In this document: positions 29,233 through 30,971 of the stretch, piece after piece
Layout of the letters: each line of letters begins with the position of its first letter
Numbering within the stretch: the first letter of the stretch is position 1
Sequence record: ON645936.1
Length of the DNA stretch: 64,000 nucleotides
Source of the DNA: Escherichia phage N2
Reading direction: 5' to 3' (one strand)
Position numbers and translations under genes: made by a program
Notes under the pieces: generated by a model
Database searches by the model: none
What the model was told of the DNA's origin: nothing
What the model saw: the letters and a program-made list of their open reading frames with translations, nothing else

Positions 29233-30162
29233 ATGTCAGGATATAATTCTCAGAATCCAAAGGAACTCAAAGATGTCATTCTAAGACGTTTAGGGGCTCC
29301 AATTATTAATGTTGAGTTAACACCCGATCAAATCTACGATTGCATCCAGCGTGCCCTAGAATTATACGGTGAATACCATTTTGATGGACTTAACAAAGGT
29401 TTTCATGTATTTTATGTAGGAGATGACGAGGAAAAATATAAGACCGGAGTCTTCGATTTAAGAGGTTCAAATGTATTCGCAGTAACTCGCATTCTCCGCA
29501 CGAATGTTGGATCAATAACGTCAATGGACGGAAACGCTACATATCCATGGTTTACTGACTTTCTTTTGGGAATGGCTGGTATTAATGGTGGCATGGGGAC
29601 TTCTTGTAATAGATTTTATGGACCAAATGCCTTTGGAGCTGATTTAGGGTATTTTACCCAGCTTACCAGTTACATGGGAATGATGCAAGATATGCTTTCG
29701 CCTATTCCAGATTTTTGGTTTAATTCAGCAAATGAACAACTCAAAGTCATGGGAAACTTCCAAAAATACGATTTAATTATCGTAGAAAGCTGGACTAAAT
29801 CATATATTGATACTAATAAAATGGTTGGAAATACAGTAGGATATGGAACAGTCGGTCCACAAGATAGCTGGTCATTATCTGAACGATATAATAACCCAGA
29901 CCACAATTTAGTTGGTCGCGTTGTTGGTCAAGATCCAAATGTTAAGCAAGGCGCTTATAATAATCGTTGGGTGAAAGACTATGCTACAGCTTTAGCTAAA
30001 GAATTAAATGGCCAAATTTTAGCACGTCACCAAGGCATGATGCTTCCTGGAGGTGTTACAATTGATGGGCAACGCTTAATAGAAGAAGCACGATTGGAAA
30101 AAGAAGCATTGCGCGAAGAACTATACTTGCTCGATCCTCCAGTGGGAGTGTTAGTTGGATGA
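29233..30162 (+). CDS. 13: Neck protein gp13
   Basis: 309 aa as T4 gp13. Confidence 0.9.
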
Positions 30163-30971
30163 ATTATACTAAAATTTACGACTCTCTTATAGAAAGATCT
30201 CTTAAAAGAGGTCTTAATAAGAAAAAATTAGATTATTATACAGAATCACACCATATTGTCCCAAAATCCATGGGAGGAGATGATTCTAGAGAAAACAAGG
30301 TTTTACTGACAGCAAGAGAACACTATTTTGCACATGAGCTTCTTTTTAAAATACACCGAAATTCTGAAATGGCTTATGCCTTAATAAAATTCTCCAAGGG
30401 TACAAAAGAGCAGAGAATTGTAAGTAAAGATTACGGATGGATTAAAGAGGAAACATCTAAAATTAGGTCAGAAACCATTAAAAAGTTTTGGGCGAATCTA
30501 TCACCAAATTTAAAACAGGAACGAATTAAAAAAGCCGGAAAAGGCATTAAAAAAACTAAATCTTTATGGACAGATGAAAAGAGAAAAGAAGTTAATGCAA
30601 ATATTCGAAAAGCTTCAGTGAAATATTTGGAATCGTTATCAGAAAACGAAATGTTAGAATATAAAGAAAGATGTTCTAAACAGATGAAAGATTTTTGGTC
30701 TGAGCTTAAAAGTGACCCCCAAAAATACGAAAAGTATTTAAATAAACTATCTAAGGGTCTTGCAAAAGTCGAAAAGAGAAATTGCCCGCATTGCGGAATT
30801 ATATGTGATGTAGGAAATTATGGAAAATACCACGGCGATAAATGCAAAGTTATCACGGGTGTATCTCATAGCAGAGAAAAATTAAAATGCCCGCACTGTT
30901 CTAAAATCATGGATAAGTCTCACGCTAAAAGATACCATTTTGACAATTGCAAATTTAAGAAGGTCGAATAA
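30159..30971 (+). mobile_element. HNH homing endonuclease gene (Mob-like) inserted between genes 13 and 14
   Basis: 270 aa ORF; HNH motif YTESHHIVPKSMGGDDSRENKVLLTAREHYFAHEL; two C-terminal CPHC...H...C zinc-finger-like modules. Confidence 0.8.

Follow-up and report, generated by a model that had tools for sequence, protein, structure and literature searches.

A probable Mob-class homing endonuclease gene with I-TevIII-type zinc fingers between neck genes 13 and 14 of Escherichia phage N2

An intact endonuclease gene separates genes 13 and 14

In a 64,000-nucleotide (nt) stretch of Escherichia phage N2 (record ON645936.1; hereafter the window), an open reading frame (ORF) of 270 amino acids (aa) plus stop lies between the neck genes 13 and 14, at 30159..30971 on the plus strand. 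We conclude, with a probability of about 0.85, that this ORF is an intact and probably active free-standing T-even homing endonuclease gene of the Mob class, fused to a DNA-binding domain with two zinc fingers of the I-TevIII type. The assignment of a free-standing HNH homing endonuclease draws on the ORF list, matches to the Pfam family HNH_4 and to PHROG 655, the absence of the gene from T4, and an AlphaFold model.

The window covers the late-gene region of a T4/T6-like phage (Tequatrovirus); it is colinear with T4 coordinates of about 65.4 to 128 kb, with an identity of 93-97%. The host gene upstream of the ORF is gene 13 (neck protein/head-tail adaptor; 29233..30162, plus strand), whose product is 98.4% identical in aa sequence to T4 gp13, and the one downstream is gene 14 (neck protein/head closure; 30973..31743, plus strand), with 99.6% aa identity to T4 gp14. 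An earlier note, made from the letters of this DNA, had described a 270-aa ORF that starts at an ATGA overlap with the gene 13 stop and splits the gene pair 13-14, and both points were borne out. The ORF's ATG (30159-30161) overlaps the gene 13 stop TGA (30160-30162) in the context GGATGA, and the two neck genes are otherwise adjacent, as in T4. The ORF ends with TAA (30969-30971), followed by one base and then by the gene 14 ATG at 30973; this TAA-N-ATG spacing ahead of gene 14 is the same as in T4. At the composition of the window the probability of a stop codon is 0.071, and 270 consecutive sense codons have P = 2.3e-9, with about 3e-4 such frames expected over the whole window, which rules out a chance ORF. 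The note had also allowed for a disrupted frame; in the window the ORF is intact. No paralogs of the endonuclease were found within the window.

Domain organization of the predicted endonuclease

Residues 1-85 (30159..30413, plus strand) make up a predicted Mob-type HNH catalytic domain. Residues 25-52 matched HNH_4 with 25.6 bits against a cut-off of 22 (E = 1.2e-5), PF01844 HNH scored 17.9 bits and stayed under its cut-off of 21.4, and PHROG 655 "homing endonuclease" matched over the whole protein length (E = 1.8e-52). The HNH core that had been read from the sequence was thus recovered by a profile exceeding its curated Pfam cut-off, with H31, H32, N46, H55 and H59 all present. A database search returned 413 homologs, and invariance was judged in an alignment of 85 of them, in which E29, H31, H32, N46, H55, H59, L62, C244, C247, H260 and C264 were invariant. 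The AlphaFold model built from this alignment had a mean predicted local distance difference test score (pLDDT) of 93.7 and contained the HNH beta-beta-alpha element, with a core strand at 29-32, a second strand at 47-50 and a helix at 52-66, at pLDDT above 94. By its profile match and its conserved catalytic and metal-binding residues, the protein is a predicted member of the HNH (His-Me finger) superfamily. A sequence search of solved structures gave marginal HNH matches only (E at least 0.08), and a full-length fold search of the PDB gave weak local matches only, to Cas8-HNH and McrA HNH domains (probability 0.97, E = 0.19) and to CTCF fingers, a result probably due to the elongated shape of the multi-domain model, which prevents a global superposition.

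The middle region, residues 86-205 (30414..30773, plus strand), is 21% Lys and has a net charge of +13. The model placed five long helices across residues 89-203 at pLDDT above 90, so this 120-residue helical region is predicted to be folded rather than floppy; of the description "Lys-rich linker" that it had been given, the lysine content stood and the linker did not. NUMOD3 (PF07460), carried by many homologs in the corresponding part, was absent from the isolated middle region even at E up to 10, and no other Pfam family scored above threshold there.

The C-terminal part contains two predicted zinc fingers of the form CX2CX12HX3C: finger 1 (CPHCGIICDVGNYGKYHGDKC) at residues 209-229 (30783..30845, plus strand) and finger 2 at residues 244-264 (30888..30950, plus strand), the latter holding the invariant C244, C247, H260 and C264. 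In the model they appeared as two small strand-strand-helix units at 206-224 and 241-263. In a BLASTP alignment the C-terminal 78 aa shared 33% identity with RB3 I-TevIII (E = 2e-7), and both fingers were in register, finger 1 on I-TevIII finger 1 (C211/C214) and finger 2 on I-TevIII finger 2 (C242/C245). The I-TevIII fingers (CX2CX12-13HX3C) bind one zinc each and are required for DNA binding, and the I-TevIII dimer interface has been mapped to residues 194-241 (PMC1865063). The counterpart of this interface region is homologous in the window protein. Two CPHC...H...C modules had been proposed earlier as a possible DNA-recognition domain, and the motif together with the alignment to proven fingers supports that proposal, zinc binding being predicted. 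They had also been called duplicated; they are not a recent tandem duplication, because they belong to two different subtypes (..GNY.KYHGDKC and ..M.KRYHFDNC, both widespread in relatives) and match at only 10/21 positions. The consensus of the finger module was CPHCGK.G....M.RWHFDNC, with 0 to 4 copies per homolog. No Pfam model scored above cut-off on this CCHC module, and no named zinc-finger family reached threshold.

The protein combines features of MobE and I-TevIII

The N-terminal ~110 aa (residues 1-113) were 44-46% identical in tblastn to T-even genes annotated as mobD or located at the mobE position beside nrdA. T4 MobB was a fold match (46% identity; root-mean-square deviation 2.7 over 129 columns), as was MobC. 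According to published work, mobE has no promoter and overlaps the gene upstream of it, its product nicks a neighbouring gene, and the gene is passed on at high frequency (PMC2790892; PMC2988022). The N-terminus of RB3 MobE is visibly of the same type as that of the window protein (MNY.KIY...E(S/T)HHI(V/I)PK..GG.D...N...LTAREH), and both genes are free-standing, intergenic, promoterless and patchily distributed and overlap the upstream gene. They differ in three respects. MobE is sited at nrdA/nrdB, and MobB, MobC and MobD lie elsewhere, whereas the window gene is at gene 13/14; the C-terminal half of RB3 MobE has no CCHC fingers, whereas the window protein has two; and a strand-specific nick has been demonstrated for MobE, whereas the nuclease activity of the window protein is predicted. 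On its sequence, the window protein fits the Mob class of free-standing homing endonucleases.

The resemblance to I-TevIII lies in overall build: I-TevIII has 269 aa and the window protein 270, and each has an N-terminal HNH domain and two C-terminal CX2CX12-13HX3C fingers, beginning at 211 and 242 in I-TevIII and at 209 and 244 here. However, the catalytic domain of I-TevIII belongs to Pfam HNH_3 (E = 1.9e-11) and that of the window protein to HNH_4/HNH, and BLASTP did not align the two N-termini. I-TevIII is encoded in the nrdB intron of phage RB3, whereas the window gene is free-standing and abuts two separate genes. In addition, I-TevIII is a dimer that makes a double-strand break with a 2-nt 3' end, properties that would be putative in the window protein. 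Since it lacks two defining features, the HNH_3 domain and the intron location, the window protein should not be called an I-TevIII ortholog. It is instead a naturally chimeric protein in which the nuclease domain is of the Mob type and the DNA-binding domain of the I-TevIII type, because the I-TevIII HNH domain is of a different subtype and RB3 MobE lacks fingers.

A full-length homolog was found in RB32ORF054w and its relatives, which lie between genes 45.2 and 46, are annotated "similar to mobB" and share 29-30% identity over 99% of the query. They have the same Mob-type HNH domain and the same finger module, but differ in carrying three fingers, a shorter middle region, another locus and a strand opposite to that of their neighbours.

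The insert is optional and younger than its surroundings

In T4, 1 nt separates the gene 13 stop from the gene 14 ATG, and the endonuclease gene is absent; genes 13 and 14 were likewise adjacent in most of 65 T4-like loci taken from viral contigs, and adjacency was seen in about 60 such loci besides T4. The 809-nt insert was found in 46 phage records, including T6, CrRp10, YUEEL01 and fPS-2, always at the same junction. These compare with about 500 closely related records, and about 90% of close relatives lack the insert. The comparison of related phages at this junction, which the earlier note had proposed, therefore revealed a polymorphism, with 46 records on one side and several hundred on the other. 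The insert is mostly annotated as "homing endonuclease" or "HNH endonuclease" in the carrier records, and the gene is thus already known by annotation in T6 and dozens of genomes; our literature search found no paper on this particular gene.

Among carriers the insert was 99.1-100% identical, while gene 13 was 92.6-95.9% and gene 14 95.2-99.0% identical. Because it is nearly identical between phages with divergent flanks, the insert is younger than its surroundings, as expected of recent horizontal spread. Ten intact copies had 42 variable sites, of which 30 were synonymous and 12 nonsynonymous, and none fell at catalytic or zinc-ligand residues. This pattern of substitutions indicates purifying selection on the endonuclease gene. 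The ORF was intact in the window copy and in 10 of 12 other copies examined, and was split in two copies (phages F1 and SHFML-26), where the alignment and the split annotation show one A fewer in an A7 run (30549..30555, plus strand). The loss may be either early decay or a homopolymer sequencing error.

Orthologs sharing 52-57% identity occurred in three metagenomic T4-like contigs, where gene 14 likewise follows them directly. In four more distant T4-like loci (L032, L041, L062 and L069), GIY-YIG-like (Seg-like) genes occupied the gene 13/14 junction. L041 matched SegE_GIY-YIG (E = 9.5e-7); L041, L062 and L069 matched the I-TevI DNA-binding domain below its curated cut-off; and L032 was assigned by sequence resemblance to these three only. 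These genes share the exact insertion point of the window gene but belong to an unrelated nuclease family. Since unrelated GIY-YIG-like and HNH genes sit at one junction, two nuclease families have invaded the site independently.

We also considered a group I intron and rejected it, since Rfam found none in the window; the gene is therefore free-standing. The earlier note had spoken of cleavage of an "intron-less target"; there is no intron here, the process would be intronless homing, and the relevant allele is that of a phage without the gene.

Several observations concern individual loci. In the contig L070, which has one of the 13/14 orthologs, genes 14 and 15 are separated by another Mob-type HNH gene (1621..2217), whose product has only one CCHC finger (CPYCKQMVYKHVAPRTHFDKC). 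At the 13/14 junction of the IMG/VR T4-like genome L062 (3478..5072), a duplicated 5' end of gene 14 (MATFDSSLFAKLE...) is fused in frame to the Seg-like ORF with its GIY-YIG-like domain; gene 13 is partly repeated as well, and the locus looks like the scar of an untidy endonuclease insertion. In phage G9062 (L080), the annotation gives a truncated gene 14, of 558 nt against 771, after the endonuclease gene, and the locus is about 54 nt longer than others; the cause is either an indel or an assembly fault within this essential gene.

A recoded gene 13 end travels with the insert

The 3' end of gene 13 in carriers (30142..30162, plus strand) has eight substitutions relative to insert-less alleles. 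They replace two residues of gp13 (F304V and I306V) and change the stop from TAA to TGA, the gp13 end reading ...PPVGVLVG in carriers and ...PPFGILVG in phages without the insert. We compared 12 genomes with the insert and 12 without it and found eight fixed differences, at 30142, 30144, 30148, 30150, 30153, 30156, 30159 and 30161. At the other polymorphic sites in 1.7 kb of gene 13 (149 sites) and gene 14 (240 sites), the allele-frequency difference was at most 0.58. Across the junction, none of the 46 insert records had more than 5 mismatches in 77, which does not exceed the number in the block-carrying T6, and the recoded block without the insert was present in no record; the best full-length match to an artificial "block without insert" was 95.1%.

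The translation start region of the endonuclease lies inside gene 13 (30144..30161, plus strand) and consists of GGGAG (30144-30148), a 10-nt spacer and the ATG (30159-30161). Four of the eight linked substitutions (30144, 30148, 30159 and 30161) create GGGAG and the ATG, and GGGAG probably serves as the endonuclease's ribosome-binding site.

Expression of the endonuclease gene

No exact T4 late promoter (TATAAATA) was present on the plus strand from 22795 to 34918. Near the ORF there were one-mismatch matches only, two of them inside it (30660 and 30737), and sigma-70-like sites were at chance level (15 observed against 11.8 expected). On these grounds a promoter belonging to the endonuclease gene was rejected. 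An RNA hairpin masking the start, as for mobE in Aeh1 and for I-TevI, was also rejected, with z = +1.08 for 30105-30205 and z = +0.02 for 30920-31010 against shuffled sequences. The arrangement matches that of mobE, which is promoterless, relies on upstream transcription and overlaps the upstream gene. The endonuclease gene would be transcribed with the late genes, and its translation would be coupled to gene 13 through the ATGA overlap and the upstream GGGAG.

The sequence that separates wac from gene 13 contains a strong terminator-like hairpin (GGGGCC-GCAA-GGCCCC, then a T run; 29203..29220, plus strand), only 13 nt ahead of the gene 13 ATG, and there is no exact late promoter downstream of this hairpin.

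Other features of the window

Two further ORFs absent from T4 resemble nuclease genes. A 288-aa ORF between gene 5 and gene 5.1 (14991..15857, plus strand) matched PHROG 314 "homing endonuclease" (E = 1e-25); it has a GIY-YIG-like N-terminus (YIYKTT...VYIGKH) with no Pfam match above threshold and probably represents a further free-standing gene of the Seg-like kind. The second ORF, of about 200 aa and situated between genes 18 and 19 (36938..37582, plus strand), matched PHROG 5104 of unknown function (E = 5e-82); it contains CxxC...CxxC followed by a C-terminal HNH-like "QLDHK...N...WESN", had no Pfam match and may be a third optional nuclease gene. The T4 genes segC (with 5.3), segD and segE (T4 80217-80775, 106521-107311 and 112044-112680) have no counterpart at window positions 16383-16388, 43585-43646 and 48411-48431, so the window phage and T4 carry largely different sets of mobile nuclease genes here.

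Eight tRNA genes lie at 5600-6952 on the minus strand. Beside this cluster, a 520-nt insertion relative to T4 contains a 171-aa ORF (7039..7554, minus strand) that matched PHROG 2290 of unknown function. The segments 281-690, 4170-4725, 8482-9135 and 60159-60589 are replaced or rearranged relative to T4 (ipII/ipIII, e.7-e.8, ipI and alt regions) and represent the usual hypervariable internal-protein and accessory regions.

Discussion

The process that most likely explains this gene, as judged from its sequence and distribution, is intronless homing. When a carrier and a phage without the gene infect one cell, the basic helical region and the two CCHC fingers would attach to the gene 13/14 junction of the latter, and the HNH domain would nick or cut near the junction. 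Recombinational repair, with the carrier genome as template, would then introduce a cassette of 829 nt (30142-30971), including the 20-nt recoded end of gene 13. This block would supply the endonuclease start signals, and it may also destroy the target site in carriers and thereby provide self-immunity.

Several points weigh against this interpretation. No published cleavage, nicking or homing experiment on the window protein was found in the literature, and its cutting mode may be either a nick, as in MobE, or a dimeric double-strand break, as in I-TevIII. The junction was not a local peak of DNA conservation that might attract endonucleases in 33-41 distinct loci. What places the putative target there is its linkage to the insert, and a sharp boundary is expected anyway, since recombination cannot occur within a 20-nt block that is 40% mismatched. 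The need for the recoded block is not universal, as the orthologs in L070 and L072 lie beside a gene 13 that keeps the T4-type PPFGIL end. Moreover, Sandegren et al. are said to have described in 2005 that some free-standing phage endonucleases (SegH and Hef) cut their own genome too, so self-immunity is not a given.

The four block changes that do not build start signals could represent either inert donor sequence or a patch that covers the target and gives self-immunity. The data do not separate the two, because a block with 40% mismatch acts as part of the insert and two orthologs retain the T4-type sequence. The alternative that survives best takes all eight substitutions as start signals plus hitch-hiked inert donor sequence, with the real target elsewhere, for example deeper in gene 13 or 14, as SegG and MobE cut at a distance. 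The fact that half of the changes build GGGAG and the ATG agrees with it, as do the two orthologs with the T4-type end and the nicking by MobE inside nrdB, away from its own insertion point. However, if polymorphism protected a distant target, a second linked site should be visible, and the 1.7 kb of genes 13 and 14 contained none; moreover, translation start has no need of the other four changes, among them two that replace residues of an essential neck protein. We regard this alternative as unlikely, though it deserves to be taken seriously.

It is less likely still that the gene is kept mainly as an aid in competition rather than as a purely selfish element, damaging the neck-gene region of co-infecting relatives and dragging linked markers along (marker exclusion). 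A published review and recent papers provide precedents, the gene lies within a block of essential late genes, and it is under purifying selection. Against this, carriers make up only ~46 of ~500 close records, and the flanking markers are unlinked to the insert, so little would be dragged along. Such a role is compatible with intronless homing and is no replacement for it.

A stranded or retired element, a former invader that is no longer mobile or active and is passively carried between genes 13 and 14, is improbable. The split copies in F1 and SHFML-26, a truncated 154-aa version in the protein database (P0005), a match in CJY920 that falls in two pieces and the missing promoter would all fit such an element. 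However, the window copy and nine others are intact, and the 30:12 ratio of synonymous to nonsynonymous changes, with catalytic and zinc residues untouched, points to selection for function. The 99-100% identity across flanks that differ by 4-7% likewise suggests recent transfer, not long passive residence, and the A7 frameshift itself may be a sequencing error. A helper nuclease for packaging can be practically dismissed: the terminase genes 16 and 17 lie 1.6 kb downstream and HNH proteins adjoining terminases are known from cos phages (PMC3592412), but T4 packages well without the gene, as do ~90% of close relatives, and the relatives of the protein are Mob-type homing endonucleases at many unrelated loci.

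The ORF between genes 13 and 14 is thus best read as a genuine optional mobile gene and not as part of the neck module, and it accounts for the 809-nt difference between T6-like and T4-like genomes. The value of the finding lies mostly in annotation, the feature being real but ordinary. Its CCHC finger module is common, occurring in 0 to 4 copies per protein, yet has no Pfam model above cut-off. The candidate pairing of enzyme and target is well defined, with the T4 sequence TTTGGAATTTTGGTAGGTTAATATGGCT on one side and the recoded carrier sequence on the other. For specialists, the protein is of interest as a chimera in which two characterised endonuclease types, MobE and I-TevIII, have been joined naturally. 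A further, tentative possibility, which we consider doubtful as a whole, joins two proposals: that the 20-nt block is a selected self-immunity patch, which imposes F304V and I306V on the essential gp13 and also carries the ribosome-binding site and start codon of the element, and that the union of a Mob nicking HNH domain with the finger and dimerisation region of I-TevIII converted a nickase into an enzyme that cuts both strands as a dimer. If true, these would be testable cases in which a selfish gene has altered a structural protein and domain shuffling has altered the mode of cutting.

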